Assembly (NCBI GenBank): GCA_965243025.1
Contig: CBDETY010000003.1
Span: 2,208,001 to 2,272,000, forward strand
Source: Candidatus Latescibacterota bacterium
GTDB taxonomy: Bacteria; Latescibacterota; UBA2968; UBA8231
Direction: 5' to 3'
DNA: 64,000 nucleotides
Shown here piece by piece: positions 2,827 through 64,000 of the stretch. A program made the translations under genes and the position numbers. The notes below the pieces were generated by a model that was given only the letters and a program-made list of their open reading frames with translations, was not told the origin of the DNA and did no database searches. Position 1 is the first letter of the stretch; every line of letters begins with the position of its first letter.

Positions 2827-3004
2827 GCCCGGCAAACCTGGATCTACGGTTTGAAAGCCATGAAGGCGAACAGCCTCATGGGGTGGATACGCTTCGCTCG
2901 ATGGTACGTCGATCGGCGGCCAAGCACCTCCGCCTGACGCCGTTTGCACCAGTGATCGTAAAGTGACCGGCAGCACAGGGGGGACTGACCCGAAAGAGGA
3001 CGCC

Positions 3005-3913
3005 ATGGGGCGCTGGTGGGTTTATCAGGGAGAGCGTTTCCCCCTGTTGAGGCACGGGCCGTTGATCCTCGCCTTCAGTTTCAGCGCCGTCTCTTTCTCC
3101 TGGATGCTGCGCTCCCCCGGAGGATGGCCCGACCCGTTGTCGGTGGTGGTCGCCTTCGCCTCCTGTCTGGTCTTCTTCCTGCAACTGCGCATCGCCGACG
3201 AGTTCAAGGACTTCGAAGAGGATGCGCGCTATCGGCCCTACCGCCCGGTACCCCGAGGTCTCGTAACCCTCCGGGAGCTGGCCGGCCTCTTCGCGATCGC
3301 GGGGGCTCTGCAGCTGGGCCTCGCCCTCTGGCTTGACCCGCGGCTTCTCGTCCTGCTGCTCGTCACCTGGATCTACTTCACCCTAATGAGCAAGGAGTTC
3401 TTTGTCGCAAGGTGGCTGCGCGGCAAACACCTGCTCTACATGGTCACCCACATGGCCATCATGCCGCTCATCGACCTCTACGCCACCAGCACCGACTGGC
3501 TGGTCTTCCAGGGCCATCCTCCATCCGGACTGTTCTGGTTCCTGCTTGCCAGCCTCTTCAACGGCATGGTGATCGAGATCGGCCGCAAGATTCGCAGTCC
3601 CCGGGATGAAGAGGAGGGGGTGGCCACCTATTCCGAGGTGTGGGGCCGGAGGCGGGCGGTGGGCGCGTGGTGGCTTGTGCTGGGGCTGGCGCTCGGTTGC
3701 GCCTGCCTGGCCGCGCGCCCCATCGATTTTGTCCCACCGCTGGCCATTGCTCTCGGGGCGTCCTTGGGCGGTGCGGTGCTCATCGGAGCTCGCTTCCTGC
3801 GGCGCCAGACTCCCGGAGCGGGGAACTGGATCGAGAACTGGTCCGGGGTCTGGACGCTGGTGTTCTATCTCAGCCTGGGTCCGGCACCGCTTCTGTGGCG
3901 GGAAATCGGATGA
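3005..3913 (+). CDS. UbiA-superfamily prenyltransferase-like membrane protein
   Basis: ATG at 3005 after GAGGA; multiple TM helices; Asp-rich RIADEFKDFEEDARYRPYRPVPRG motif and a second DEEEGVATYS motif. Confidence 0.75.
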   Translation: MGRWWVYQGERFPLLRHGPLILAFSFSAVSFSWMLRSPGGWPDPLSVVVAFASCLVFFLQLRIADEFKDFEEDARYRPYRPVPRGLVTLRELAGLFAIAGALQLGLALWLDPRLLVLLLVTWIYFTLMSKEFFVARWLRGKHLLYMVTHMAIMPLIDLYATSTDWLVFQGHPPSGLFWFLLASLFNGMVIEIGRKIRSPRDEEEGVATYSEVWGRRRAVGAWWLVLGLALGCACLAARPIDFVPPLAIALGASLGGAVLIGARFLRRQTPGAGNWIENWSGVWTLVFYLSLGPAPLLWREIG

Positions 3914-6618: not shown

Positions 6619-7730
6619 GCACCGAAGCGGCGGCGCAGGCCGATTTCTCGTTCATCCGCTACGCGCAGTGCTGGGAGGACGCCGACGTTCTCCTCGAGGC
6701 GCTCGAGGTTGGCGAAGGGGACGTCTGCCTGTCGATCGCTTCGGCGGGAGACAACTCGCTCTCACTCCTGTCCCGGGGTCCGGCGCGCGTGATTGCCGTC
6801 GACATGAACCCGGCGCAGCTCGCCTGTCTCGCGTTGCGCGTCGCCGCCTACCGCGTGCTCGGGCACGGCGAACTCCTGCAACTCGTCGGCTCGCGGGAAT
6901 GCGCCGACCGGGAAGCTCTCTACAGACGCTGCCGCGGCGCCCTCGAGACCAGGGCTCGCGGCTTCTGGGATGCCCGCCCGGAGCTCATCCGGGCCGGCAT
7001 CGGCGGCGCCGGAAAGTTCGAGCGTTACTTCGCCGCTTTTCGCACAAAGGTATTGCCGTGGATCCATCCCCGGCATCGAGTCGACCGGCTCCTGGCCGGC
7101 GGCACCCTGCAGGAACGCCGGCGTTTCTACGCCAGGAGCTGGGACAACCGGCGCTGGGGTCTCCTCTTCCGGCTCTTTTTCTCCCGCTTCGCAATGGGCA
7201 GGATGGGCCGCGATCCGGCTTTCTTCCGCTACGTGGAGGGCTCGGTGGCGCAGCGCATCCTGTCGCGGGCCAGGCACGCGGCCACCGAGCTCGACCCCGC
7301 GGCCAACCCCTACCTCCAGTGGATTCTCACCGGCCGCCACACCACCGCCCTGCCCCACGCCCTGCGCGAGGAGAATTTCGACGCCATCAGGGAAAACCTG
7401 AACCGGCTCGAATGGCACCGCATGTCGATCGAGGAACTCCTCGCCTCCGAGCCCGGGCTTCGCTTCGATCGCTGCAACCTGAGCGACATCTTCGAATACA
7501 TGTCAGACGAGAGCTTTCACCGGCTGCTCGCCACCCTGGCCGACCGCGCCCGCAGCGGGGCCCGCTTCGCCTACTGGAACATGCTGGTGCCCCGCAGCCG
7601 TCCACCGCAGCTGGCGCACGCTCTCACTCCGCGCAGCGAGCTTGCCGAGCGGCTTCACCTTCAGGACAAGGCGTTCTTCTACAGCCGGTTCGTCGTCGAG
7701 ACGGTAGAGGGGGAGGCAGGGCCGCGATGA
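6615..7730 (+). CDS. DUF3419 / BtaA-like SAM-dependent (3-amino-3-carboxypropyl) transferase family protein
   Basis: RYAQCWEDADV N-terminus, SAM-binding IASAGDN and VDMNPAQ, LSDIFEYM, DKAFFYSRF; ATGA overlap with the upstream gene. Confidence 0.8.
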   Translation: MSTEAAAQADFSFIRYAQCWEDADVLLEALEVGEGDVCLSIASAGDNSLSLLSRGPARVIAVDMNPAQLACLALRVAAYRVLGHGELLQLVGSRECADREALYRRCRGALETRARGFWDARPELIRAGIGGAGKFERYFAAFRTKVLPWIHPRHRVDRLLAGGTLQERRRFYARSWDNRRWGLLFRLFFSRFAMGRMGRDPAFFRYVEGSVAQRILSRARHAATELDPAANPYLQWILTGRHTTALPHALREENFDAIRENLNRLEWHRMSIEELLASEPGLRFDRCNLSDIFEYMSDESFHRLLATLADRARSGARFAYWNMLVPRSRPPQLAHALTPRSELAERLHLQDKAFFYSRFVVETVEGEAGPR

Positions 7731-9100
7731 CACTCACCGCCACCCTCCTCGCCATGGCGGTCCTCCTCGCCGCGTTTGCGGTGCTCCTGGCTGGTCTCAA
7801 GGCGATTGAGAAGAGAAGCCGTCTCCATCCCGAACTCCTGCGCAAGGGCATGCACGTCCTCATGGGGATGGTCCTCCTTCCGTTGCCCTGGGTCTTCGAC
7901 CGCGCCTGGCCGGTGATCGTGCTGGCAGTCCTCGCCTGCGGCGCCATGGTGGCGGCGCGCGCCAGCCGCCGCCTGCGCAGCGGCATCGGAACGGTGATGG
8001 GCGGAGTCGGGCGGAACAGCCTCGGCGAAATCTACTTCCCGATCGCCGTGTGTCTCCTCTTCCTCCTCAGCCGCGGCGACTGGCTGCTTTACGTCGTTCC
8101 CATCCTCATGCTGGCGCTGGCGGACGCCGTCGCCGCCCTGGTGGGCCTTCGCTACGGGTTGTCGCAGTACCGGACTTCGGACGGCCACAAGAGCCTCGAG
8201 GGTTCTCTCGCATTCTTCCTGGTGGCCTTCTTCAGCGCCCACCTTCCCCTCCTGCTCCTGACCGGCACGGGACGCGCCGAGGCCGTCCTGATCGCCGCGA
8301 TCCTCGCCCTCCTCCTCATGATGCTGGAGTGCGTGGCGTGGCGCGGACTGGACAACCTCTTCATCCCCCTGGGGGCCCACGCTTTCCTGCGCCTCTACCT
8401 GGGTGCAGAAACCGGGCTTCTCCTCTTTCACCTGATGGTTGCCGTGCTCCTGACGGTTTTTGCACTGGCCTGGAGGCCGCGCAGGAAGCTCGACGACAGC
8501 GCGCTCATCGGATGCGCGCTCTTCGGCTACGCCGCCTTCACGCTGGGCGGTTGGCTGTGGCTTTCCGGACCGGTGGTCTACTTCCTCACCCTGATCCTGG
8601 TCTGGCCGCGCTCCCCTGCGGATCGTCCGCACACCGTGTATGCCATGCTCGCGTCTTCGGCCGCGGGCCTGTGCTGGCTGTTCGCCCACTCCATCACCGG
8701 GAAGGGGTGGCTCCTGATCCCCTTCACCGGCTCCTTCGCCGCCCAGCTCACCCTGTACGGGGTCGCGAGGTTCGGCCACCTCCCCGACCGTGGACCGCGT
8801 TCCCTGCGCCTGCTCGGCGACATAGGTCTCGGCTGGCTTCTCATTCACTGCCCGACCCTGCTCATCGCTTTCGCCTATGGTCTCGCCGACCTGGCGTCCC
8901 ACGCTCCCGTACTGGATGTCCCCGGTCTCTTCAGCGACCTCGGTCTCGGCCTGTTGGCCACCAGTATGGTTGCGGTGGTCTTCTACCTGCTGGTGCCGCG
9001 AATCTACGGTCCACCCATGCGGGAGGCCGCCATCAACCCCACCTTCGCCGCCCTCGGCATTGTGGCGTCGGTCGTGGCGGCGCTGCGCTGGCTGGGCTGA
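7727..9100 (+). CDS. CTP-dependent dolichol/phytol kinase-like membrane protein with C-terminal membrane extension
   Basis: ATG at 7727 (ATGA overlap); PELLRKGMH, LALADAVAALVG, HKSLEGSLAFF and GLDNLFIP motifs; highly hydrophobic. Confidence 0.8.
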   Translation: MTLTATLLAMAVLLAAFAVLLAGLKAIEKRSRLHPELLRKGMHVLMGMVLLPLPWVFDRAWPVIVLAVLACGAMVAARASRRLRSGIGTVMGGVGRNSLGEIYFPIAVCLLFLLSRGDWLLYVVPILMLALADAVAALVGLRYGLSQYRTSDGHKSLEGSLAFFLVAFFSAHLPLLLLTGTGRAEAVLIAAILALLLMMLECVAWRGLDNLFIPLGAHAFLRLYLGAETGLLLFHLMVAVLLTVFALAWRPRRKLDDSALIGCALFGYAAFTLGGWLWLSGPVVYFLTLILVWPRSPADRPHTVYAMLASSAAGLCWLFAHSITGKGWLLIPFTGSFAAQLTLYGVARFGHLPDRGPRSLRLLGDIGLGWLLIHCPTLLIAFAYGLADLASHAPVLDVPGLFSDLGLGLLATSMVAVVFYLLVPRIYGPPMREAAINPTFAALGIVASVVAALRWLG

Positions 9101-9149
9101 GGGGGAGAAGGTGGTCCGGCAGCGTCGGCAGCAGGGAGAGGCCAGGAGA

Positions 9150-9272
9150 GTGAAGACGACCCTTGCCCTGTTTGCCCGGCTGCCGGTGGCCGGGAGCCTC
9201 GCCCTCCTCGCGGCGGACGCGAGTGCACAGTCGATCGATGACGCAAGGTCCGCCTACGCAGAGGGCCGCTAG
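9150..9272 (+). pseudogene. 40-codon remnant: signal peptide plus a few residues of a secreted protein
   Basis: GTG after AGGAGA; VKTTLALFARLPVAGSLALLAADASA/QSIDDARSAYAEGR then TAG. Confidence 0.4.
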
Positions 9273-9310
9273 CCGCGCCGGTTGCAAACCTTCCACACAG
9301 TCGAGGAGAG

Positions 9311-10309
9311 ATGAGCCCTTTTTCCATTGTCGAACGGGTCGAGGATCTGGCGTCGCTGCGGGCCGGTCCGGTGGAGCCGTTGCAGGCCGAGGACTTCCTG
9401 CTCACAGCGCCCTCCCGCCATCTCGCATTGCAGGACGCGACGGGCGGGTTGCTCGCCCGTTGTTCGCTGTGGAGGGCCCGCGACGCCCATGGCGAGCCGA
9501 CCACGGCCGGCCGGATAGGACACTATGCCGCTCTCGATGCCGGTGCCGGCAGGGCGCTGCTGGGACAGGCCTCGGACTGGCACCGGTCCGAGGGGTGTGA
9601 ACGGGTCATCGGTCCGATGGACGGCTCCACCTGGAACCGCTACCGAATGCTGACCGAGCGCGGGACGGAACCGGTTTTCTTCCTGGAGCCCGACAATCCC
9701 GACGACTGGCCCCGGCACTTCGCCGACGCCGGATTCGCGCCGCTGGCGACCTATGTCTCGGCGCTCAATTCAGACCTCGACCAGTTCGACCCGCGTTCCG
9801 ACCGGCGGCGGTCCGAACTCGAACGGAACGGCATCACCATCCGGACCATCGACGTCGAGCGCTTCGACGCCGACCTCGCCGCCATTCACGAGCTGTCGCT
9901 GGCGGCGTTCGCGGGCAATTTCCTCTACAGCCCCATCGCGCTCGAGACCTTCGTTGCCTCCTACACTCCGATCCGGCCCTGTCTCGTTCCCGAGCTCGTC
10001 CTTCTCGCGGAGCAGAGCGGGCAACCCGTCGGCTTCATCTTCGGCATCCCGGATCTCATGGAGCCGGCGCGAGGCGAGCCCCGGCGCACGGTGGTCCTCA
10101 AGTCGCTGGCGGTGCATCCGTCCTGCGCTGGAAACGGCCTCGGCGGTCTGCTGGTGGACGATTGTCAGCGGGCGGCGAGGAAGCTCGGGTTCGAGCGCGC
10201 CATTCACGCCCTGATGCACGAAAGCAACCTGTCGCGGAGGATTTCGGCTCGCTACGGAACCGTTATCCGCCGCTACACTCTCTACGAGAAATCGCTGGTC
10301 CGGGAATGA
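9311..10309 (+). CDS. GNAT-family N-acyltransferase (two-lobed type)
   Basis: RBS GAGGAG; GRIGHY, IGPMDGSTWNRYR, FFLEPDNP, and acetyl-CoA motif AVHPSCAGNGLGGLL. Confidence 0.8.
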   Translation: MSPFSIVERVEDLASLRAGPVEPLQAEDFLLTAPSRHLALQDATGGLLARCSLWRARDAHGEPTTAGRIGHYAALDAGAGRALLGQASDWHRSEGCERVIGPMDGSTWNRYRMLTERGTEPVFFLEPDNPDDWPRHFADAGFAPLATYVSALNSDLDQFDPRSDRRRSELERNGITIRTIDVERFDADLAAIHELSLAAFAGNFLYSPIALETFVASYTPIRPCLVPELVLLAEQSGQPVGFIFGIPDLMEPARGEPRRTVVLKSLAVHPSCAGNGLGGLLVDDCQRAARKLGFERAIHALMHESNLSRRISARYGTVIRRYTLYEKSLVRE

Positions 10310-11919
10310 ACATCAGCCAGGTCCTGATCGATCGGGCCGCCGAGCGGCCCGGGGAGCCCGCGATCGTCGAGGCGGTGGGAGGGGGGACGCGCTCCCTCAC
10401 CTTCGGTCAGATGGCGGAACGCTCGGCGAGAGCGGCCGCACTCCTGCACTCGGCCAAGCTCCACGAGGGGGATCGGATCCTCGTATTCCAGCCGATGTCC
10501 ATAGAGCTCTACGTCGTCCTCCTGGCGATCTTCCGTCTCGGCCTGGTGGCCACCGTGCTGGATCCCTCGGCCGGACGCCGGCACATCGAGCAGTGCTGCA
10601 GCATCGCCCGTCCAAGGGCGTTCGTCGGCCCCGCCCGGGCACACATCCTGCGGTTCGCCTGTCGAGGTCTGCGTCGCATCGAACGGCACTTCGCAACCGC
10701 GGGCTGGGCCCCTGGTGCGACCCGGTGGTCCAGGCTCGAACGCCTCGAGCCCCTGAAACCGGTCACCGCCTGCGATTCGTCGCACGACGCCCTTCTCACC
10801 TTTACCAGCGGCAGCACCGGAGTGCCGAAGGCGGTGGTCCGCAGCCACGGTTTCCTGCTGGCGCAGCACGAGGTCCTGGCCGAGTCCATCGAACTCGAGC
10901 CCGGCGAAGTCGACCTCGCCACGCTGCCGATCTTCGCGCTCGCCAATCTGGCCTCGGGCGTGACGACGGTCATACCACGGTGCGACCTCCGTCGTCCCGG
11001 TTTCGTGGAGCCGGCCCCGATTCTCGAGCAACTCAGGCGTCATCGCGTCACCCGGACCGCCGGATCCCCGGCGCTGTACGCCAGGCTGCTTCAGGGAGCT
11101 CGCGCCGCAGGGGAGGCAGGAAGCGAGAGCGGTGAGACGAGCCTCGGCACGCTCGAGAAGCTCTACACCGGCGGCGCTCCCGTCTTTCCCCGCCTCCTGC
11201 AGCAGCTCCGTTCGGCGATGCCGCAGGGCCGGGTGATCGCAGTCTACGGCTCGACCGAGGCAGAGCCCATCGCTCACCTCGATTGGGACGAGGCGGAACC
11301 CGCCGACCTGGACGCCATGTATGCCGGCAAAGGACTTCTGGCCGGAAGGCCGGTGCGCCAGATCGAGTTGCGCATTCTGGACAACCGCTGGGGGGAGGCT
11401 CTTCCGGAATTGAAGGCAAGGGAATTCGCCGAACGCGCGTTGCCTGCGGAGCGGGGCGGCGAGATCGTGGTGAACGGTCCCCATGTGCTCGCCGGCTACC
11501 TGGGCGGAATCGGCGACGAGGAAACCAAGTTCCTGGTCGAAGGGGAGGTCTGGCACCGCACCGGCGACGCCGGCTGCCTTGACGCCGCAGGCCGACTGTG
11601 GCTCCTGGGACGCGCCGGGGCGGTCATTCGGGACGAACGCGGCACGATCTATCCCTTCGCCACCGAGTGCGCGGCAAGCCAGCTGGCCTGGATCGAAAGG
11701 AGCGCTCTCGCCGGGCACAACGGCGAGCGTCTCCTGGCGGTGCAGCTGGGGGCACGGGCGCCTGCGGACGCGGAGCGGCGCGTGAAGAAGACCCTAAGCT
11801 GGGCACAACTCGACCGGGTCGTGCGGTTGGCGCGAATACCGGTCGACCGCCGCCACAACGCGAAAGTCGACTACCCCAAACTGAAGAAGGAACTCGAACG
11901 CCATGGCAACTGCCGATGA
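10306..11919 (+). CDS. ANL-superfamily adenylating enzyme (acyl-CoA ligase / OleC-like)
   Basis: ATG at 10306 (ATGA overlap); LTFTSGSTGVPK, VYGSTEAEPI, WHRTGDAG, PVDRRHNAKVDY. Confidence 0.88.
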   Translation: MNISQVLIDRAAERPGEPAIVEAVGGGTRSLTFGQMAERSARAAALLHSAKLHEGDRILVFQPMSIELYVVLLAIFRLGLVATVLDPSAGRRHIEQCCSIARPRAFVGPARAHILRFACRGLRRIERHFATAGWAPGATRWSRLERLEPLKPVTACDSSHDALLTFTSGSTGVPKAVVRSHGFLLAQHEVLAESIELEPGEVDLATLPIFALANLASGVTTVIPRCDLRRPGFVEPAPILEQLRRHRVTRTAGSPALYARLLQGARAAGEAGSESGETSLGTLEKLYTGGAPVFPRLLQQLRSAMPQGRVIAVYGSTEAEPIAHLDWDEAEPADLDAMYAGKGLLAGRPVRQIELRILDNRWGEALPELKAREFAERALPAERGGEIVVNGPHVLAGYLGGIGDEETKFLVEGEVWHRTGDAGCLDAAGRLWLLGRAGAVIRDERGTIYPFATECAASQLAWIERSALAGHNGERLLAVQLGARAPADAERRVKKTLSWAQLDRVVRLARIPVDRRHNAKVDYPKLKKELERHGNCR

Positions 11920-12062
11920 CAGCTGGACAAAAAAGGCTGTTCCTTGAGAGAGAGCGCTTGTGAAGCGGTTGGGGGAGGGCACGAGTTTTCAAGTGGGCAG
12001 GTGGAATCCAGGATTGGAGCTTTAGTCGATTTTTTATTTGGAGTCAGCCTCTGGGCCTGCTG

Positions 12063-12452
12063 ATGTGCAAAGGGGCCCGCAGTGCTGACCTGGAAGGAAA
12101 GGTGGCGATCTATCACTGGTCGATCGACCAGAAACGGATGAGCGAGAATCCCCGTACGGAAATTCCTGTGGTTGAATTCTCAGGACATATTCCGGAAACG
12201 GAGTTTCAGCCGTCCGGAATCGAGCGGCACCCTGCCTCGGGGAACTACTTCGTCGTGGCTGCCCGTCAGCGCGCCATAACCGAGATCACCCCCGACGGGC
12301 AGGTCCTGGCCGTCAGGCAGTTTTCCGCGCAATGGCATCGCCAAGTTGAAGGCATCACTTTCGCGGCGGACAACACCCTGATCGTTGCCGATGAAGGCGC
12401 GGGTGGAAAGGCCGGAATAACGGTTTACCCGATAAAGAAACCCGGCAAGTAG
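12063..12452 (+). pseudogene. C-terminal fragment of an SdiA-regulated/YjiK-like beta-propeller protein
   Basis: FQPSGIERHP...RQVEGITF..DNTLIVADEG pattern; no N-terminal half upstream; lower GC. Confidence 0.55.
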
Positions 12453-12551
12453 CTGTTTCAGGGCAGCTACTGGTCTGGGCGGTCCGGATGGGCGTTCAAG
12501 TGCGGGGCTCTTCGGCCGAACACCGATTGTAACGGCCGCTTATTTCGAGGA

Positions 12552-12855
12552 TTACTCCGGGCGAAGCTGCTGCAGGAAACCGTCGAGACCCTCGTCGAAA
12601 CGCTCGATGAGCTCCGGGACCTTGTCGGCGATCTCCCCGACCTTGAGGGGATCGAGGTCGGCGGTGTAAGCGTGGCGGAACAGGTGCCTGAAACGGCGCA
12701 GTTCGTCGAGAATTCCCGCGGTCTCAAGAGACAGCAGGGCGGGCCGGATGCCCTCGATCCGCAGCTTCATGCGCCGCAGCAGGCCGGTGTGGCAACTCTC
12801 CCCTTCAACCCGGTTCTCGAAGGTCCCGGCAACCTCTTCGAACAGCTGCTCGAAA
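12552..12855 (-). pseudogene. N-terminally deleted HEPN (HepT-like) RNase toxin
   Basis: The frame upstream of the ATG at 12770 reads FEQLFEEVAGTFENRVEGESCHTGLLRRM...; Rx4H motif in RFRHLFRHAY; no proper start or N-terminal helices. Confidence 0.7.
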
Positions 12856-13185
12856 GACTTCCAGCCCCGCTTCGGTGAACGAATCGGCCGCGGGATGGCG
12901 GTCGAGGTCGATGACGTCGACCTGCCTGGCGGTCGCCTCCTCCAAGTCCTTCATCACCTCCAGAACGGCATGCGAACAGCCCCGGACAGCGACGTCGACG
13001 TCCGATGAGCTGCGCCATGCCCCCGGCGTCTTGAGTGAACCGACGATCCAGGCGGCCTCGATTCCATGCTTGCGGCGGATCCGCCTCAAAACCTCCTGCA
13101 CCCGTTCGAGCAGCGCGCCGCGCTCCTGCTCCAGCTTCAACCGCCGGCTCCTGAGGGCCTCGTCCAGTCTGCTCGTGTCGAACAT
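12805..13185 (-). CDS. Minimal nucleotidyltransferase (MNT) antitoxin, with a read-through C-terminus
   Basis: RBS GGAGG; IVGS...SSSDVDVAV...QVDVIDL motif. Confidence 0.8.
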   Translation of the reverse strand: MFDTSRLDEALRSRRLKLEQERGALLERVQEVLRRIRRKHGIEAAWIVGSLKTPGAWRSSSDVDVAVRGCSHAVLEVMKDLEEATARQVDVIDLDRHPAADSFTEAGLEVFRAAVRRGCRDLREPG

Positions 13186-13254
13186 GGAACCTCCGGCAGA
13201 TGAGCTTACATCAATATCAATAAGGTACGGGGAATGCGGGTACTCCCGCGATGC

Positions 13255-14871
13255 TCACGCATCGAGCACGCCGATGGTCGGTCCGAAGCTGTCCTGGTAA
13301 GCCTGGGCGTCGAGGCGGCAATCGATCAGGGTAGTGACGTCCGCAGCGAGGGCCGCTTTCAGCGCCTCCCGGAACCCCTCGGGGGTATCGACGGTCGCCC
13401 CGGCCAGGCCGCACGCCCTCGCCACCTGGGCGTAATCGACCCTCTGCAGCTGCAACTTGTACTCCGGCATCCCGCGCGCCTTCTGCCGCCACCTCATGGT
13501 TCCGAGGGCGTCGTCGTTGAGGATAACCAGGGGCGCCGCCACCCCGGCGCGCGCCAGGGTCTCCAGCTCGCCGAGCCGCATCAGCAGGCTGCCGTCGGCT
13601 CCCAGCCCCAGCATCGGGGTTTCCGGAGCCGCCAGTTTGGCACCGAGCAACGCCGGGATCGTCAGCCCCATGGTGCGGCCGCCGCTGGTGCCGCGGTAGC
13701 TCGCCGGATCGTCGACCTTCCACATGTGCTCGAGAATGGTGATGTAGATCCCGGTCTCCGAGAACAGCACCCCTCCCGAAGGCATCAGCTCCCCGGCGAT
13801 CTCGATGACGTCCTGCGCCGCCAGGCGCGCCTGCGGGGGCCGCGCGAAGTGCGGCTTCACCGCGGCGTCGATCGCGGCCAGCTCAGCCTCTGAGAAGCCC
13901 TCCCCCGCCGCCGTCAACTGTTCGATGGATGCCTTCAGGTCGCCGTCCACCCGCACTTCCGGGTCGGCGGTGAACGACAGGTGTTCGGGCCGCGCCACCA
14001 GCTCGCAGACCGGCAGCGGGGTGCTCAAGGGCACGTGCGCCATCATCGCGTCCGCGCCGGCGAAGAGCACGGCGTCGGCGCGCTGGAGCACCTCCATCTC
14101 GACGGTGTTGTCCACCCAGCTCCCGGTCATCACTCCGGCCCAGCGGGCGTGGGACTCGGGGAAGGCGCCGCGTCCGTCCATGGTCGACAACACCACTCCC
14201 CCAATGCGCTCGACGAGCTCGACCAGCTCAGGGGTGGCCCCGGCCCGGGTCACGTCGGCGCCGGCGACCACCGCCGGCTTCACCGAGCCTTCGAGAAAGG
14301 CGCGCGCCGCCTCGACGGAAGCCGCAGGCGCAGGGCTGTCGATACTGGCCGGAAGGGGCGGCAGCGATCCCCCGCAGTCCGCGTCGCCGAGGTCGGACGG
14401 CAGGTCGAGGAGCACCGGTCCGGGACGGCCGTCGAGGGCCCGGAACCAGGCCTCCCGCAGCATCTCCGGGGCGGCCCCGGGGCTCAAGGTGCCGCTGTAC
14501 TTGATCACCGAGCCGAACAGCTCCTCGTGGGCGCAATGCTGCACGAGGCCTCCCCGGGTCACCGTCGAGGAGGCGGACTCGCACAGGCAGACGACCGGCG
14601 CCCTCTCGAAATGGGCGTTGACCGCGCCGCCGGCTAGGTTCCCCGCGCCGACCCCCTTCACCGACAGCGCCAGGCCCGCGGTATCCTTCATCAGGCCGTT
14701 GTACGCCCCGGCTATCGCCGCGGTCGACTCGTGCGCCACCGAGACGAACTCGACCCCGAGCCGGCGGCCGTACTCCATCAGGTCGAGAGGACAGCCGCCC
14801 CCGGGAATCCCGAAGAAGTGGCGAATCCCCCTCTCCCGCGCTTCGCTTATGATCAGTTCCGCCAGTTTCAC
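13255..14871 (-). CDS. Thiamine diphosphate-dependent enzyme (acetolactate synthase-like family)
   Basis: FFGIPGG, AHESTAA, RPGPVLLDLP, TPP motif GADGSLLM...ILNDDALG. Confidence 0.85.
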   Translation of the reverse strand: MKLAELIISEARERGIRHFFGIPGGGCPLDLMEYGRRLGVEFVSVAHESTAAIAGAYNGLMKDTAGLALSVKGVGAGNLAGGAVNAHFERAPVVCLCESASSTVTRGGLVQHCAHEELFGSVIKYSGTLSPGAAPEMLREAWFRALDGRPGPVLLDLPSDLGDADCGGSLPPLPASIDSPAPAASVEAARAFLEGSVKPAVVAGADVTRAGATPELVELVERIGGVVLSTMDGRGAFPESHARWAGVMTGSWVDNTVEMEVLQRADAVLFAGADAMMAHVPLSTPLPVCELVARPEHLSFTADPEVRVDGDLKASIEQLTAAGEGFSEAELAAIDAAVKPHFARPPQARLAAQDVIEIAGELMPSGGVLFSETGIYITILEHMWKVDDPASYRGTSGGRTMGLTIPALLGAKLAAPETPMLGLGADGSLLMRLGELETLARAGVAAPLVILNDDALGTMRWRQKARGMPEYKLQLQRVDYAQVARACGLAGATVDTPEGFREALKAALAADVTTLIDCRLDAQAYQDSFGPTIGVLDA

Positions 14872-57821: not shown

Positions 57822-58862
57822 TCAGTTCGGATCCTCTGGTTCGGAACCGCATGAGGACGACTGGCTGGCGGATACGATGACCTTGGGGGCCGTGCCGGGC
57901 ACCGGGTAAGGCTCAATTGTCCCCACACCGCAGGACCACCGGCTACCCGATGCGGCGACCTTGGGGGCTGTGCCGGGAACCCGGTAGTACTCAGCACCGG
58001 AGGGGTCCACCTTGTAGCCGAGATCGGCGAAGGCCTGTACGGTAACGGCGCTGAGGACCCGGCGGACACCGGGCTCTCTTCCGAGGGTCATGATCTCGTT
58101 GCCGAAAACGGACTTTCGCCAGTGGGAGTCCCGGCCGATCCCCATGTGCTCGACGGGTACGCCTTCCCTGTCGTACGTGCCTCCGGCCTCCTCAAACGCC
58201 TGAAGTGCCTGACGGCCGGTGAAATGGGTTTCTTCCCCGGGAGTACACCAGGATGGAAGGGCCAGCATGTTTTCCCAGGGCGGGCGGGACGCCCCAAAGC
58301 CCAACACATGGCCCAGCTCGTGAATCATGGCGTCTCTGCCCAGGTCGTAGCTTTCCTCGAACACCCGGTCATTCAGGACCACACCGCCAATGAGGGGGAC
58401 ACGAGTGTCGCCGCCCCGGGTCATTATAGCGCCACCGTAACCGTAAATTCCCTCGGGCAACGAAGCCAAGGTCACGTACACGAGCACGTCATCGAGGATT
58501 CCACCGAAGTAAATCCGCTCGAACCATTCATCCCACCCGCATTGCGGCCACCACTCCTCCTCATTCGTATCGAATGGGTATTCTTCGAAGTGAAAATCAA
58601 TCACGTCAGTCGTTATGATGCTCTCCCACGTGGCCGCCGCCTCCTCGATCACACGACGCTGTTTTGGTGAGAATTGATGCCCGGAGGTATGACGCTGCTT
58701 GGCGAAGGGTCCAGGATCGGACACGAAAACCAGGTCGATGTTGAATCCGGGCCTGGGAGAAGGATCGAACAGCTCAGGCTCAATGGAGTTTGTCGGTGTG
58801 CGGTTGCAACCGGCTGAAACCAGAATCACTGCGACGAACGACAGAATCAGAGCGGTTTTCAT
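57822..58862 (-). CDS. Leishmanolysin (M8)-like zinc metallopeptidase lipoprotein
   Basis: Lipobox signal MKTALILSFVAVILVSAG-C; HELGH zinc motif, DSHW third ligand, NEIM Met-turn; lower GC. Confidence 0.8.
   Translation of the reverse strand: MKTALILSFVAVILVSAGCNRTPTNSIEPELFDPSPRPGFNIDLVFVSDPGPFAKQRHTSGHQFSPKQRRVIEEAAATWESIITTDVIDFHFEEYPFDTNEEEWWPQCGWDEWFERIYFGGILDDVLVYVTLASLPEGIYGYGGAIMTRGGDTRVPLIGGVVLNDRVFEESYDLGRDAMIHELGHVLGFGASRPPWENMLALPSWCTPGEETHFTGRQALQAFEEAGGTYDREGVPVEHMGIGRDSHWRKSVFGNEIMTLGREPGVRRVLSAVTVQAFADLGYKVDPSGAEYYRVPGTAPKVAASGSRWSCGVGTIEPYPVPGTAPKVIVSASQSSSCGSEPEDPN
57879..57986. repeat. Imperfect direct repeat (78-bp period) at the peptidase C-terminus
   Basis: GACCTTGGGGGCCGTGCCGGGCACCGGGTA (57879-908) vs GACCTTGGGGGCTGTGCCGGGAACCCGGTA (57957-986); encodes Y.VPGTAPKV...SCG twice. 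Confidence 0.8.
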
Positions 58863-58924
58863 GGCAGCACCTCGTAAAGGCCGATCGAGCCCCGAGAAAG
58901 GATACGGAACTCCGGCTCATAAGC

Positions 58925-59005
58925 TTATGGTTCCGGTGATGGGACCGTGGCCTTGATCCGGCCCCAGGTTTCGGCCTCCACGGCCGTCTGACCCGGGCCC
59001 AGCAG
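58925..59005 (-). pseudogene. Orphan C-terminal fragment carrying a TAVE..TWG.IK motif
   Basis: Minus frame ends LLGPGQTAVEAETWGRIKATVPSPEP*; upstream sequence is not convincingly coding. Confidence 0.45.
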
Positions 59006-59271
59006 GCACGGTATTCTCCAAGGAGACAAAGCTCCTTCTGAGCACCCCTCCATGGTCTTGTTGACTATTACGGTCTTTGGCCTTGCCCCGTGAACGATGC
59101 AAACATCACCTGCGAGTTCCCGAGTATTCGATCGATTCAACAATAGATCCCCCATCCTTGATCTCAACCCCCCTTGGAACCTCCATGGAAGGGGGACCGG
59201 TTTTACCGCAGTACAATCAATATAACCGGCTGATCCTGAGAACACCTGCGGTTATCGTCGGGGGACAAATG

Positions 59272-60378
59272 TTACCGGCAGCGCTCCTCGAACACCCTGA
59301 CCCCGGTGCGCACCGTCGTCAGGGCCAGCTCCACCCGCTGCGCGAACGCGCCGTACATCCCCATCTCGGTGCCGAACGCCATGCCGTGCCGGCGCGAGGC
59401 GTAGTCCATCAGGTTGAGGCCCTCCCCGCGCCTGGTGGCGTCGAGCCAGAAGACCGCCTGCTGCGAGCTCGTGAACCACTTCGACGGGGCGTCCCCCGCC
59501 TCGGCGAGGGTGACCCCGGTGGCGGCGATCTCGCCGATGATCTCGCGCGCCGCCCGCTCCTCCCAGCGCTGGCTCTCCGCGTCCGGCAGCGCCCGCGCCG
59601 ACAGCCAGAAGCGGTCCTCCATCAGCGAGGATTCGTGCAGGTCGAAGCTGATCCCGGGCTCGATCTCCTCCATGAGGCGGCGCGTCACCCGCGGCTCCAC
59701 CGGCGCCCAGGCGGTGTCGTGGAAGCGGTTGATGTGCAGGATCTCGCCGTCGAAGCCGATGATCAGGGTGTAGGCGCGCCCGAAGTCCCCGGTCCCTTCG
59801 ACCCCGGGCTCGCCGGGGTTCATGTACACGCGGCGGCCGTACACCGGCTCGAGGATCCCCGGCTCCTCCCTGAACAGCCGCTGCAGCCGATGGAAGAAGT
59901 AGATCTGCGTGCAGGCCCGTTCCGGCTGCGGGCGGCTCAGGGTGTATCCGTACTCGCCGATCAGCACGAGGAGGAGGTCGTCCTCCTCGAACAGGACGTC
60001 CCCCTGTTCCCGCAGCAGGGACTCGAGCTCGTCGTAGGAGCCGAACTCCGGTGGTTCCCCGAGCCCGAGGGAGAGGGCGTGGGCGAAGCCGTTGAGGCCG
60101 ACCGGGTCGCGGGTCGGGATCACGTACACGGCGTGCTCGGTGTCGAGCCGGTCGATCAGCTCGACCGCGGCGCTGACCCCGGCGTGCTCGGTCGAGTGGC
60201 TGCCCGCGGTGATGAAGACGGCCGGCGCCTTGTTTCCTCCGCCGCGGGCCGCTACCAGGGGGGAGCCGTCGAGGGTGTGGCCGAGGGTGCGCACCTGCCG
60301 GCTGCGGCGCGTCACCTCGTCGAGGAGTTCTTCGTATTTCCAGTAAACCTTGTTATATTCGGTCTTAAGTGGTTTCAT
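59272..60378 (-). CDS. M14-family zinc carboxypeptidase/deacylase-like protein
   Basis: GSHSTEHAG (HxxE), PTRDPVG, INRF, FDLHE, GTEMG. Confidence 0.8.
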   Translation of the reverse strand: MKPLKTEYNKVYWKYEELLDEVTRRSRQVRTLGHTLDGSPLVAARGGGNKAPAVFITAGSHSTEHAGVSAAVELIDRLDTEHAVYVIPTRDPVGLNGFAHALSLGLGEPPEFGSYDELESLLREQGDVLFEEDDLLLVLIGEYGYTLSRPQPERACTQIYFFHRLQRLFREEPGILEPVYGRRVYMNPGEPGVEGTGDFGRAYTLIIGFDGEILHINRFHDTAWAPVEPRVTRRLMEEIEPGISFDLHESSLMEDRFWLSARALPDAESQRWEERAAREIIGEIAATGVTLAEAGDAPSKWFTSSQQAVFWLDATRRGEGLNLMDYASRRHGMAFGTEMGMYGAFAQRVELALTTVRTGVRVFEERCR

Positions 60379-60458
60379 AGGGAAAAAGCTCCATTTAGGG
60401 TAGTCTCTAAGATAGAATATCTTTTGGGATTATCTATAAGAACAACCAAAGTTAAAAC

Positions 60459-61358
60459 ATGGAAAAATCCGAAATCCGCCGAATCGTCGAGGGTCGAATC
60501 TCCCCCCATACTCGCAAGCAGTACGGATACTGCCTTGCTCGAATTGGCCGGGAAATCGACACAGACGAGGGATTATGTGAATACATCGAAGAGAAATTCC
60601 GGGAAGGGAAAGCACCCGGCTCGATACAGAATATCCTCAATGCGGTTCGTTGGGATTGCGAGAGAAACGGGAAACCGTCTCCCGTAGGTCCCCTAACAAG
60701 AGCCCGAATAAAGGCGATGAGACGGGAAGGACGCAACCGAGGCAGAGGGCAGGCAAAGGGGGTTCAGTGGCAACAAGCTGCGGAGGTTGCGGCAATGGCG
60801 GAACGGGACACCTCTCTTGTCGGTTTGCGGGATGCTGCCATGATTGCCGTTCAATCCGATGGACTCTTACGGGTTAGTGAGGTGGCGAAAATCCGAGTCG
60901 AGGACGTGCAGTTTGGAGAGGACGGAACCGCCACCCTCCGTATTCCCTACTCGAAGACAGACCAAGACGGCAGAGATTGCCCGGAATTATTCCTTGGCTA
61001 TCCTACTGCCAGCCGAATACGTGCTTGGTTGGGTGCTTCAGGGATTCAGGAAGGACCATTGTTCCGAAGAGTCCATATCGGGGCAAAGCGAACCGGAACG
61101 AGAATCGCCGATGGAGAGATGAGTACAGAAGGAGTGCGGGGAATTCTCAAGCGACGTTGCAAGGCTGCCGGAATTGAGGGAATTTCTGGCCATTCCTTCA
61201 GGGTAGGAAGCGCGCAATCCTTGGCGGTTATGGGAGCGAGCTTGATTGAGATGCAACAGGCTGGCCGATGGACAAGCCCCGAGATGCCGTATCACTACAG
61301 CAAAAAACAGCTTGCCGCAAAAGGTGCCGTTGCCCGCCTCAGATACGGGCAGCAATAA
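60459..61358 (+). CDS. Tyrosine recombinase/integrase (Cre-like)
   Basis: GLRDAAMI..GLLRVSE (R), YSKTDQ (K), SGHSFRVG (HxxR), AGRW (W), MPYHY (Y). Confidence 0.92.
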   Translation: MEKSEIRRIVEGRISPHTRKQYGYCLARIGREIDTDEGLCEYIEEKFREGKAPGSIQNILNAVRWDCERNGKPSPVGPLTRARIKAMRREGRNRGRGQAKGVQWQQAAEVAAMAERDTSLVGLRDAAMIAVQSDGLLRVSEVAKIRVEDVQFGEDGTATLRIPYSKTDQDGRDCPELFLGYPTASRIRAWLGASGIQEGPLFRRVHIGAKRTGTRIADGEMSTEGVRGILKRRCKAAGIEGISGHSFRVGSAQSLAVMGASLIEMQQAGRWTSPEMPYHYSKKQLAAKGAVARLRYGQQ

Positions 61359-61421: not shown

Positions 61422-61832
61422 TCAATTTCCTGCCATATCCAGAACACCAACAAAGGCCACTACTCCCAAGAAGCCATACCACAACCGACTCGACCTTTTC
61501 CTCTTTCTCGTCCCTTCCTTGTAGCTCATGGCGAAAGCTTTCTTGTATATTTCGCTTTCGCCTTCCTGGGATAGTTGGAGCTTTTGGGGAACATTATCTC
61601 CCCGTGTCATCCACCACTGGGGGATGACCCAGATTGTTCCTCCCACGATTCCGGATGCAAATCCCGCACCCACAGCCACCAGCCTGGTTTTCGCCATGCT
61701 GGCCTCATGTGCGGCCACCTCTCCTTCAATTTTTCCGTCAATGGCCCCTTTCTTGGTCACGACCACGACGGTATCCTGAGTAGCCCCCACGGAGCCCGCC
61801 AACAGGCATACGAACAGCAGCAATTTTCCCAT
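61422..61832 (-). CDS. Hypothetical exported membrane protein (element cargo)
   Basis: ATG at 61832 with RBS AGGAGAGG; signal-like MGKLLLFVCLLAGSVGA and two further hydrophobic segments. Confidence 0.65.
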   Translation of the reverse strand: MGKLLLFVCLLAGSVGATQDTVVVVTKKGAIDGKIEGEVAAHEASMAKTRLVAVGAGFASGIVGGTIWVIPQWWMTRGDNVPQKLQLSQEGESEIYKKAFAMSYKEGTRKRKRSSRLWYGFLGVVAFVGVLDMAGN

Positions 61833-61945
61833 GTCCCTCTCCTTTTCGATGGGTGAGGTGGGAAAGTAATGAGAATCTAACCGATGATGCCAGGGCGGGC
61901 GCAATAGCTCGGGGATGAAGGCGGCGGCTATTGGGAGCTATTTCC

Positions 61946-63025
61946 TTACTCCAGCCCCGCCAATCTCAAAGCTTCGTCAAGCTCGACACCACTACCGGCC
62001 AGGGAAGCGGCTGCCCTCGCCTTCGACATAACGTCAGAGGCAAACAGCCTGTCGAAAGACAGGGTTACCGGAGTTTCCAGCTTCTCGGATAGTTCCGCCT
62101 CGACGGATCGCGCAACCGGGCTGACGCTACTGTGCAAAAACTGCCTCCAAGCCTCTCGCCTTGCTGCCCCGTCTCCACGTTCTGAGACAAGCGACAGAGG
62201 CACCCCGCAAGCCTGCAACAGACTGTGGGCAACGTCTTCCCGTAGTTCTCTGAGGCTGTCGGGAGGGTCTGCGCCAATTCTGACGGGTACGAAGTCTTTC
62301 CGGGGAGCGGTGTTCATCCCCTCCCCAAATCCCCCGGCTGTAGTCTCGACAAGGGCGGTTTTTCCCTTCAGGGTCTTCAGGGTCTGCCGCAATTCCCCGT
62401 ATGCGTCGAATTCTTCCCCGTCTACCTCTGCCGGTTCCGGATCGCTTGGAACCGGGAGTAAATGGCCAACAATTCCGCCAGTTTCTTCGCTCAGACGCTT
62501 TTCGAGGTTCCCGAGTAGGGTAGAGGTAAGGGAGGCTCGCTTCCAGGGAGAAGCGCCAAATTCGGGCAATTCTGCCTGATAACTCCATCGGCAATGAATC
62601 ACTTGGTCTGCCGGTGCTCGTTGGTAGGTTAAGGTCGATGAAGGTCCGTACACCGTACACCGGTACCGCCAACTGTTGCGGCTGGCTTTCCCGGTTACGG
62701 AAAAGTCACCAACCGGCAGCAATTCCAGCTTCCCCCCCTCGACTTGGATCACTGCCAACCCTTCGCCTCGAAGTACCAACTCTTGCCCGATCCATCCGAG
62801 AAACTCAGGAGTCAAAGCCTGTGTAAGGGGTGTAGCAGGATCTACAGCCGCTGAGGAGAAGGCCCGTCTCCACAATCCCGCAGCCGTTTCTATCGCAGCC
62901 ACACCCCTTACAAGCTGGCTGTCGTCTGAATCTGCCTGAGATTCGACGGCATTTAGCAGAATGTTGGTGAACCCGTCTACCTCGGTAGATCGCTTCTCAG
63001 TCTTTGTAAATGGCCAAAATTTCAC
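61946..63025 (-). CDS. Phage portal protein (short HK97-like)
   Basis: MKFWPF..EKRS N-terminus, ELVLRGEGLAVI, VIHCRW, FGASPW, QACGVPLSLV, VARSVEAELSEKL. Confidence 0.8.
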   Translation of the reverse strand: MKFWPFTKTEKRSTEVDGFTNILLNAVESQADSDDSQLVRGVAAIETAAGLWRRAFSSAAVDPATPLTQALTPEFLGWIGQELVLRGEGLAVIQVEGGKLELLPVGDFSVTGKASRNSWRYRCTVYGPSSTLTYQRAPADQVIHCRWSYQAELPEFGASPWKRASLTSTLLGNLEKRLSEETGGIVGHLLPVPSDPEPAEVDGEEFDAYGELRQTLKTLKGKTALVETTAGGFGEGMNTAPRKDFVPVRIGADPPDSLRELREDVAHSLLQACGVPLSLVSERGDGAARREAWRQFLHSSVSPVARSVEAELSEKLETPVTLSFDRLFASDVMSKARAAASLAGSGVELDEALRLAGLE

Positions 63026-63034
63026 CGGTAAAAA

Positions 63035-63394
63035 TTACTCCGGAAGAGTGGTAATACTGTCTGACTTGCAGTGCAACCGTTGCCACCTTTTTCGATCCAA
63101 AGCCTCGATTCGGGCAATTACGAGGGTCTCCCCGTCATGTCGTATCCAATCGTCTGTTTTGTACCGCTTGGAATACCGTACGGTAAAGACTGCCTCGTTT
63201 TCTTCGCCTCTGTGGGTCAAGAATCCCGTAGCGGTGACAAGGTTCGATTCTGCTCCCGGATCGCGTCTGCACCACACCTTAGAGAAGGTTTCCGGGGTCC
63301 GTCTGCCCTCGGGGATTGGTCCGTGTTCGAGGATTGAATCGAGGGCAAAGCGCAGCCTCTGGCGTGTAGTTTTCGCAAGATCAGGCATGTTCAA
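63035..63394 (-). CDS. Putative head-closure/head-tail adaptor protein
   Basis: ~119 aa; KVWCRR...AVFTVRY...WIRHDGETLVIARIEALDRKRWQRLHC pattern typical of gp16/FII-like adaptors; lies next to the portal gene. Confidence 0.6.
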   Translation of the reverse strand: MNMPDLAKTTRQRLRFALDSILEHGPIPEGRRTPETFSKVWCRRDPGAESNLVTATGFLTHRGEENEAVFTVRYSKRYKTDDWIRHDGETLVIARIEALDRKRWQRLHCKSDSITTLPE

Positions 63395-63689
63395 TTACGG
63401 CTGCCGTATGCTTTCGCCAGGTAGACAACAGCCCCTTTGCCCCGCTGTTTGTGAAGGCGGTTGAATAGTTGGGGTGTTGGCTGCCGTCGATGTCGTAGAG
63501 ATACGAGACAAAGCGTACCGTTGCCTCTTTCTTTGTCGCCATTGGTGCTTGTGGTGCGTACCGTTCGATTTCCGCATTGGCAACCCCGCAAAGGTCCGTC
63601 AACCGCTGTTCAATGGCTGCCTCAAGCGTCTCTGTTGTGTCTGCGATGATGCGAAGGGCAACCCCTATTTTCTGCACGTCTACAGCCAT
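63381..63689 (-). CDS. Putative head-tail connector (gp6/gp15-like)
   Basis: ATG at 63689; helical 102 aa protein, AEIERYAPQAP..KEATVRFVSYLYD...NSGAKGLLSTWR. Confidence 0.6.
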   Translation of the reverse strand: MAVDVQKIGVALRIIADTTETLEAAIEQRLTDLCGVANAEIERYAPQAPMATKKEATVRFVSYLYDIDGSQHPNYSTAFTNSGAKGLLSTWRKHTAAVIEHA

Positions 63690-64000
63690 AGCAACCGCTC
63701 CGCTTTGTGTCGCCGTCTCGGGAGGTTGTGGTATTCCGGTTCTCCCCAACCTTCGGAAGCGTCTGTACTCCCGATTACCAGTGCTCGTAAGATGGCAGCC
63801 GAGTACGCCATTGTTACCCCTTGGATAATCCCCTCTGACAATCCCCTGTCCAAGTGCGGCCGTACGTAAACCGGGGCAGCTTCGATCTTGTCGAGAAGGT
63901 CGTCTACCATTCCTTCCGGTACGTCGATCTCAACCGAAAGACCGTTTTCGAGTCGCTTCCCTCGTACTGTTCCCCGTGAAGTACTGGCCAATGGGCTGCC
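63680..64000 (-). CDS. 5'-truncated phage protein, possibly prohead protease-like
   Basis: Frame open to the window end; PLAST..G...GLSVEIDVP resembles HK97 protease segments; ends RRRHKAERLLWL, overlapping the next gene. Confidence 0.4.
   Translation of the reverse strand, partial: GSPLASTSRGTVRGKRLENGLSVEIDVPEGMVDDLLDKIEAAPVYVRPHLDRGLSEGIIQGVTMAYSAAILRALVIGSTDASEGWGEPEYHNLPRRRHKAERLLWL

Follow-up and report, generated by a model that had tools for sequence, protein, structure and literature searches.

The 64,000-nucleotide stretch of a Candidatus Latescibacterota genome analysed here (the window; G000:C3:2208001-2272000) carries one end of an integrative element that has inserted among the first codons of a gene for an M14-like metallopeptidase. 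We consider it likely that this element recombined at an 11-bp core inside the peptidase coding sequence (CDS), that it restores the open reading frame (ORF) with a start of its own, that the peptidase is expressed from signals of the element and that the element is satellite-like. As far as sequence comparison can establish it, the structural part of this reading is shown, namely recombination at the core, displacement of the native start and an open chimeric ORF with an element-borne ATG and a GGAG motif. A preliminary description, made from the letters of the window alone, had placed the attachment (att) site within the CDS and had suggested that the ORF is restored with the element's own N-terminus and GGAG; the flanking repeat, the empty sites and the junction alignment bear this out.

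The element extends past the end of the window, and its far part was analysed in a second stretch, L002 (C3:2266001-2284000), in which a coordinate equals the window coordinate minus 58000; positions beyond the window are given as window equivalents. With the peptidase as query, two genomes of the same genus, G001 and G002, were found to lack the element. In a blastn comparison, L002 1273-2345 matched the DNA of both genomes at 93-94%, and the match picked up again at 12467, with 11 nt that fit both places. The inserted segment measures 10,132 bp, from window 60346 to window-equivalent 70477. An alignment of the four junction sequences placed the 11-bp core, TACTGGAAATA, at codons 4-7 of the native peptidase gene. 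The attL copy of the core lies at 60335..60345, reading TATTTCCAGTA on the plus strand and TACTGGAAATA in the sense of the gene, where it encodes Y-W-K-Y (two nucleotides of the last codon); blastn against G001 and G002, the junction alignment and a contig from a public sequencing run (X6, below) all place it there. The direct repeat that the preliminary description had proposed to look for at the far end is present: the far copy of the core lies outside the window at window-equivalent 70467-70477 (G000:C3:2278467-2278477) and is joined to the displaced native 5' end of the gene.

Occupied and empty forms of the locus were both found in public sequencing runs. A run search listed 22 runs, 20 of them with part of the locus, in 12 coded studies, and many were labelled sponge metagenome. 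Contigs of four runs (X1, X5, X6 and X20) were aligned to L002:1200-13400. X1 (study P1), a possible source sample of this genome, contains a single 22.6-kb contig that covers 1719-13400 with 0 differences, and X5 (study P2) contains contigs over 2230-3661 and 11497-13067, also with 0 differences, so that the occupied form spanning both junctions occurs in two studies. X6 (study P3) is an empty site in an otherwise identical background: its 697-nt contig runs through 1909-2334 and then 12467-12737, skipping 10,132 nt, with 11 nt that fit both sides and 0 differences, and the run has no cover over the element except one small piece. The comparison with element-free relatives that the preliminary description had suggested bore it out, with G001 and G002 empty and the X6 contig 100% identical in both flanks. 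Because occupied and empty forms coexist in public data with identical flanks, the insertion event is recent and precise. The same empty-site joint was found in X20, an RNA library (study P12), in a 379-nt contig with 14 differences in 341 nt (a ~96% identical strain); its source is a related strain, and it may reflect carried-over DNA.

At the integrase-proximal junction, the native ATG CGA ATC (MRI) is replaced by an element-borne 5' end consisting of an ATG and ten codons (MKPLKTEYNKV; 60346..60378, minus strand). This end reads ATG AAA CCA CTT AAG ACC GAA TAT AAC AAG GTT and continues in frame into the core; a Shine-Dalgarno (SD)-like GGAG (60389..60392, minus strand) lies 10 nt upstream of the new ATG. 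At the far junction, the native upstream region, its SD GAGGA and ATG CGA ATC with the core stand displaced by 10.1 kb, and the displaced start now opens a 6-codon stub whose TAG is completed by an element-borne G. The preliminary description had anticipated a GC-rich alternative N-terminus at the far end; the displaced 5' end was found there, but it amounts to three codons rather than a GC-rich block. The native start reads GAGGATACC ATG AAC ATC TAC TGG AAA TAC GAA GAG in G001 and ATG AAA ATC TAC TGG in G002, and the element-free starts of G001, G002 and X6 all read M-x-I-Y-W-K-Y.

The short native start is shared by the relatives examined. The peptidase search gave 46 matching places in 33 of 41 genomes, of which 20 were returned as loci, and the 19 loci outside the genome of the window were examined with a script that takes the start nearest to a conserved Y/F. 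In 19/19 this start lies 1-4 codons upstream of the conserved residue, behind a purine-rich SD-like motif, and the 11-codon extension occurs in 0/19; the loci come from several genera and from a second family. In G001 another in-frame ATG lies farther away; the short start is favoured because of the position of the SD and the family-wide conservation. One relative, G016, has an extended-looking N-terminus, MKVLKDGFQMAVIY, which was considered as a further element and rejected, with no drop in G+C content (GC), no integrase and an SD before an inner ATG.

Integrase-type recombination at TACTGGAAATA, in codons 4-7 of the gene, has shifted the native promoter region, SD GAGGA and ATG CGA ATC by 10.1 kb to the far junction, and the integrase-proximal arm provides the in-frame ATG, ten codons and GGAG with which the peptidase ORF remains open. 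We propose that carriers translate the peptidase from the element-borne ATG and that its transcription comes from the spacer between the integrase and peptidase genes or from read-out of the element. Peptidase expression would then be uncoupled from the native promoter and possibly tied to the element's own regulation. The spacer is an AT-rich, divergent segment of 80 nt between the peptidase ATG (60378-60376) and the integrase ATG (60459), read from the sequence at 60379..60458, and this distance and the GGAG at 60392-60389 are as the preliminary description had given them. Its small inverted repeat is likewise present, as AAGATA-GAA-TATCTT at 60409-60423 (AAGATA-N3-TATCTT), followed by a third TATCT at 60432-60436, and the 100 nt immediately upstream of the integrase gene have a GC of 0.34. 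We presume that the spacer serves as promoter, operator and attP-arm region, and the inverted repeat may be a candidate operator or integrase arm site. The 9-mer CTATTTCCA was not enriched in the 18 kb examined (6 matches with at most one mismatch, a number reached in 11 of 200 shuffles).

To what extent the open ORF reflects a selected arm was assessed by shuffling the 150-nt arm 100,000 times. Ahead of any stop, an in-frame start arose in a fraction of 0.43 for any start codon and 0.21 for ATG, in 0.033 for any start with an SD-like motif and in 0.013 for an ATG with an SD-like motif (5-13 nt upstream). This result favours a selected arm, if modestly, since the criterion was chosen with the sequence already known and it was the intact ORF that had first drawn attention.

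Several observations weigh against expression of the peptidase from the element. Some in-frame start is present in 43% of the shuffled arms, and the SD criterion is post hoc. The GGAG stands 10 nt from its ATG versus 5 nt for the native GAGGA, and because of this longer spacing initiation at the element-borne ATG may be weaker. A scan of the element-borne spacer with the sigma-70 consensus found 0 promoter-like sites; it found 0 in the native upstream region as well, and is therefore uninformative for this organism. No transcript, start of transcription or protein that would bear out the chimeric 5' end was seen, and the sole RNA-library contig at the locus, that of X20, shows the empty-site form. 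Of what the preliminary description had the element supply, the ATG, codons and GGAG are borne out; a working promoter and the possible rewiring of expression stay putative, with 0 sigma-70 sites in either upstream region and no RNA of the chimeric 5' end seen. No circular attP joint was found in the contigs of X1 or X5, which drop rare variants. The flanks are 100% identical to the empty form, so the insertion is so recent that the intact ORF says nothing on whether carriers are under selection to keep the function. The searches gave no close relative of the element (integrase >57% identity) to show whether the restoring arm is conserved.

These points feed a reading in which restoration is fortuitous and the peptidase is silent or strongly down-regulated in carriers, a switch-like disruption, as by SpyCIM1 in mutL, from which excision would restore expression; we hold this to be possible, if on balance unlikely. 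The frequent in-frame starts in shuffled arms, the spacer free of sigma-70-like sites and the long SD spacing are all as it would predict, the coexistence of empty and occupied forms with identical flanks is what either a switch or a recent insertion gives, and 5'-end integration that silences mutL is a precedent in the available part of Nguyen and McShan 2014 (PMC4129442). On the other hand, only 1.3% of the shuffled arms had an ATG in frame behind an SD-like motif, a sibling element described below also spares its neighbour gene's SD and ORF, and no empty-site joint was found in the contigs of the carrier samples X1 and X5, with the same limit that contigs drop rare variants.

The gene content of the element was called with Pfam and PHROGs. 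A tyrosine recombinase of 299 aa (60459..61358, plus strand) begins 113 nt from the core and matches PF00589 at 50 bits vs 27.1 over residues 113-283, and phrog_1 at 1.4e-14. With this terminal PF00589 integrase, its att repeats and the matching empty sites, the element is an integrative element of the tyrosine-recombinase (phage-integrase) type. From the next ORF through the large terminase, the genes lie on the minus strand. That ORF (61422..61904) encodes up to 160 aa with hydrophobic segments, has no family match and is missing from the sibling element, and is possible cargo. It is followed by a portal protein (61946..63025; PF04860, 46.8 vs 39.1 bits; phrog_12; 81% identity to the sibling), a head completion/closure protein (63035..63394; PF05521, 27 vs 25 bits; phrog_25), a 122-aa ORF without family match (63381..63749; 77% identity in the sibling), which from its position is likely a head-tail connector-type protein, and the 3' part of an S78 prohead protease that is cut by the window end (63680..64000). 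Beyond the window lie an HK97-type capsid gene (window-equivalent 64592-65812), an HNH endonuclease gene (65742-66113) and the large terminase gene TerL (66145-67743). A region of ~1 kb without a convincing ORF follows (67750-68720; L002 9750-10720); it contains three long inverted repeats of 32 nt, 28 nt and 19 nt with 81%, 86% and 95% complementarity, and may be an origin, packaging or regulatory region. Farther on, two plus-strand ORFs of 232 and 150 aa and a DUF2158 protein (70074-70259) make up the far part of the element. For the 12 remaining ORFs, Pfam and PHROGs at E <=0.5 gave no match to tail, lysis, regulator, replication, excisionase or small-terminase families, NCBIfam gave no match for the 4 of these ORFs that were scanned, and neither Rfam nor a tRNA scan matched anything in the element or at its junctions.

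A sibling of the element was found in G002. It is ~9.6 kb long (L093 7185-16793; G002:C1, about 1036185-1045793), its repeat copies are 9,587 bp apart, and the flanking repeat is 22 bp with 2 mismatches. Its genes follow the same order, TerL-HNH-capsid-protease-orf122-head closure-portal-int, at 38-81% amino acid identity. The sibling lies 50-72 nt upstream of the start codon (ATG) of a glycosyltransferase-like gene oriented divergently to int; the repeat ends 50 nt before this ATG, and the SD and ORF of the gene are intact. At the syntenic site (C3:2785919-2785938), the genome of the window is empty. Two diverged, intact and similar-sized elements argue for a functional element family.

The gene set resembles that of phage-inducible chromosomal islands of the capsid-forming type (cfPICI). 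According to the available part of de Sousa et al. 2023 (PMC10085698), the SatelliteFinder model for cfPICI has 11 core components, at least 9 of which are required, and forbids tail and holin genes, and cfPICI are reported from Proteobacteria and Firmicutes. Like them, our element is integrated, is ~10 kb long and combines an integrase, HNH and TerL with portal, protease, capsid and connector-type genes; Pfam and PHROGs hit no tail or lysis family in it. Seven of the 11 components were recognised: int, HNH, TerL, portal, protease, capsid and head-tail connector/adaptor; the 122-aa ORF may be the second connector. Unlike in cfPICI, no AlpA-type regulator or analogue, primase-replicase or small terminase was recognised, a weak negative since Pfam and PHROGs rather than SatelliteFinder profiles were used; the gene order also differs, and the host, with its high GC and its origin in sponge metagenomes, falls outside the two phyla named in that part of the source. 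Membership in cfPICI is thus not established, and the element probably behaves like a capsid-forming phage satellite. We think it unlikely that it is instead a decayed, immobile prophage remnant, which would make the 5' replacement a frozen accident. The unrecognised tail, lysis, replication, regulator, excisionase and small-terminase genes and the unusual order of the head genes would fit a remnant; against it, all head-module ORFs are intact, their order is kept in the sibling elsewhere despite the divergence of the proteins, and the identical flanks of occupied and empty sites argue for recent, precise mobility.

Relatives of the integrase were distant. Identity reached at most 48% over full length in genome_contigs and at most 57% in metagenome_contigs, no relative was found in viral_contigs, and paralogs within the same family of genomes reached at most 53%. 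Paralogs at ~45-53% identity had 4 matching places in the genome of the window, 7 in G002 and 12 in G001, and several of the copies in G001 and G002 had near-identical upstream GC profiles, as in multi-copy elements. In a rough look at 22 paralog loci, with crude start-codon guesses, a divergent host gene 80 nt away was seen only here; the survey script mis-set the int start of the G002 sibling. TerL homologues of 43% identity occur in G077 (C9 5874-7445 and 16284-17855; C12 1018-2589 and 11523-13094), twice per contig and ~10.4-10.5 kb apart, the spacing to be expected if a ~10-kb element had been assembled in tandem or as a concatemer.

It could also be that the long form is ancestral and that the relatives and the X6 population deleted the 10.1 kb between chance repeats, without site-specific integration. 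Recombination between the 11-bp repeats would indeed give an identical empty-site sequence; against this stand the foreign composition (GC 0.536 vs 0.68), the integrase at one end together with the phage head module, the short N-terminus in 19/19 loci across several genera and a second family, and the sibling at a different site with its own flanking repeat, and we regard a deletion as very improbable.

The composition of the gene start was the observation from which the preliminary description had set out. Its counts, nine A/T-ending codons among the first 17 of the peptidase and none among the next 21, are exact. From codon 18 to the end of the gene, 3.1% of codons end in A/T, and at this rate the binomial P is 5.6e-10 for at least 9 of 17 and 3.8e-7 for at least 6 of the 11 element-borne codons. 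The compositional edge at the element is also real, with GC 0.536 in the element vs 0.677 and 0.682 in the 10 kb on each side; the switch had been put at ~60328, and the junction lies at 60345/60346, 17 nt to the right. Codons 12-17, TAC TGG AAA TAC GAA GAA, are core and host sequence, and G001 and G002 have TAC TGG AAA TAC GAA GAG. Because these two genomes carry AAA, GAA and GAG at codons 14, 16 and 17, the three A-ending codons there are native, so the caveat that gene starts are often AT-richer anyway covers three of the nine codons, and the element explains the other six. That the element brings no 5' end at all, the A/T-ending codons being an ordinary gene start and the integrase a mere neighbour, accounts for those three native codons (AAA, GAA and GAA) and has practically no probability left, being refuted by the empty-site alignments, the junction alignment and the X6 contig: codons 1-11 have no counterpart in 19/19 relatives' loci, the native ATG CGA ATC with the core was found 10.1 kb away, and the empty-site contig has 0 mismatches.

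GC falls from ~0.68 to 0.54 at window ~60350 and recovers near 71000. A right end placed by GC alone was rejected, as the lower-GC segment 70478-71330 is native and present in G001 and G002. No repeats of at least 10 nt were found between window 60200-60480 and 70600-71500, the right-hand range lying beyond the true junction at 70467, and a general repeat search of the 18 kb did not have the 11-bp core pair among its top families. Within the native segment, window-equivalent 70602-71188 (L002 12602-13188) contains two adjacent paralogous small ORFs of 121 and 73 aa with a hydrophobic N-terminus and a coiled-coil; the copies are 79-87% identical, one has an internal 21-nt tandem repeat (x3), and this region is found in G001 and G002 despite a GC of 0.567. 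The core 11-mer has 5 copies in the genome vs 0.38 expected from composition. The extra copies lie at G000:C3:6293026, 3847591 and 4383939, and two of the three have a longer context of ~30 nt in common, which suggests another repeated element.

The target gene (59272..60378, minus strand) encodes 368 aa, with codons 1-11 derived from the element and codons 12 onward from the host. Its product matches PF00246 (Peptidase_M14) below the gathering score (17.4 vs 21.6 bits, E 0.0037, residues 18-80 only), has no NCBIfam match, and its PDB sequence matches have E 0.29 or worse. An AlphaFold (AF2) model built from 19 aligned homologues had a mean predicted local distance difference test score (pLDDT) of 86.5, and Foldseek matched it to putative metallopeptidases and to carboxypeptidases A, B and T (probability 1.00, E 5e-10 to 1e-7, template modelling score 0.45-0.61). 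H61, T63 and E64 are invariant across 19 sequences (HxxE zinc motif), and the protein as modelled would have both the carboxypeptidase alpha/beta fold and this motif. Because of the Foldseek matches, M14-like is a safe name despite the PF00246 score below the cut-off. The closest element-free ortholog, that of G001, is 92% identical and has 360 aa, 8 residues fewer than the occupied form. The model gives residues 1-10 a mean pLDDT of 51, and the first helix spans residues 15-25; in the model the extra N-terminal residues would be a disordered tail before this helix and are probably tolerated and harmless. The G002 ortholog (L005, G002:C1:2775260-2776345) has one in-frame TAG, so that a reading from the native ATG ends after 171 aa, and is either a pseudogene or an assembly error. 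Downstream of the peptidase gene (window 57822-58862, minus strand, and 58863-59271), a leishmanolysin-like (M8) metalloprotease gene (PF01457, 23.9 bits, just over the cut-off) lies in a lower-GC stretch (0.596), so that two unrelated peptidase genes adjoin.

Integration inside a CDS with a substitute gene end is classically known from phage 21 and e14 in icd, where the 3' end is restored by a homologous substitute of ~165 bp. As in that case, a substitute end keeps the ORF intact here; unlike there, it is the 5' end that is exchanged, the substitute is non-homologous, and it must also bring translation and transcription signals. For the 5' end, the closest precedent is provided by the dusA-associated islands and prophages. 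In the available portion of Farrugia et al. 2015 (PMC4482086), these insert in the 5' end of dusA, which is exchanged for island-borne sequence, and what had been the 5' end survives as a remnant at the far junction; putative promoters are described before and after integration, and excision restores the wild-type gene. Our element likewise integrates in the 5' coding end, supplies a new 5' end and leaves the old remnant. It works like the dusA-type islands, but with an M14-like peptidase as its target it is not a member of them. It also differs in a core of only 11 bp at codons 4-7, in putting 11 codons in the place of 3, which lengthens the gene where a like-for-like substitute would not, and in being a 10-kb head-module element with a 299-aa integrase, unlike the large dusA islands and full prophages.

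For HK022 at torS/torT in E. coli, the part of Carey et al. 2019 (PMC6814406) available describes a gene cut off from its native promoter and regulator site, with a phage-borne promoter beside the junction experimentally shown to take over, so that the gene is regulated differently. Integration by the gene start similarly separates the peptidase from its native promoter region; the HK022 attB, however, lies upstream of the CDS and no codons are replaced, whereas here the CDS itself is recombined and the promoter is only presumed. The G002 sibling, 50-72 nt before an ATG, is nearer to the HK022 geometry. SpyCIM1 and related streptococcal islands (13-20 kb, with an integrase) target the 5' end of mutL, and SpyCIM1 silences mutL in a growth-phase switch and has no capsid genes, as given in the accessible part of Nguyen and McShan 2014 (PMC4129442), where restoration of the 3' end is described as the rule, promoters or 5' ends are named as frequent targets of S. 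pyogenes prophages, and phage 21 and e14 in icd are mentioned. Our element is, like SpyCIM1, a small phage-like island with an integrase at the 5' end of a host gene; unlike in SpyCIM1, whose excision is dynamic, the ORF is kept open with a new start and the element has a head module of its own.

Integration that replaces a gene's 5' end is therefore already known, and this insertion is a clean new example of it rather than a new principle. It provides a natural case, resolved to the base pair and with both alleles in public data, of a mobile element inside the first codons of a gene that is still translatable. For annotation, it means that a core gene can owe its N-terminus and upstream signals to a foreign source, and for element discovery, that att sites at 5' ends are under-reported compared with tRNA and 3'-end sites. 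Such cases show integrative elements rewiring the control of host genes. Together, the element and its sibling hint at capsid-forming, satellite-like elements in sponge-symbiont lineages without described ones. Speculatively, and with considerable doubt, the two ~10-kb elements might belong to a so far undescribed lineage of phage satellites of sponge-associated high-GC bacteria that encode a capsid but no tail; their integrases would systematically target first codons or 5' leaders, and their integrase-proximal arm would be built to take over the genes, with a start, SD and promoter of the element. If so, the host gene would report on, or be held hostage by, the regulatory state of the element, until excision returned it to native control.

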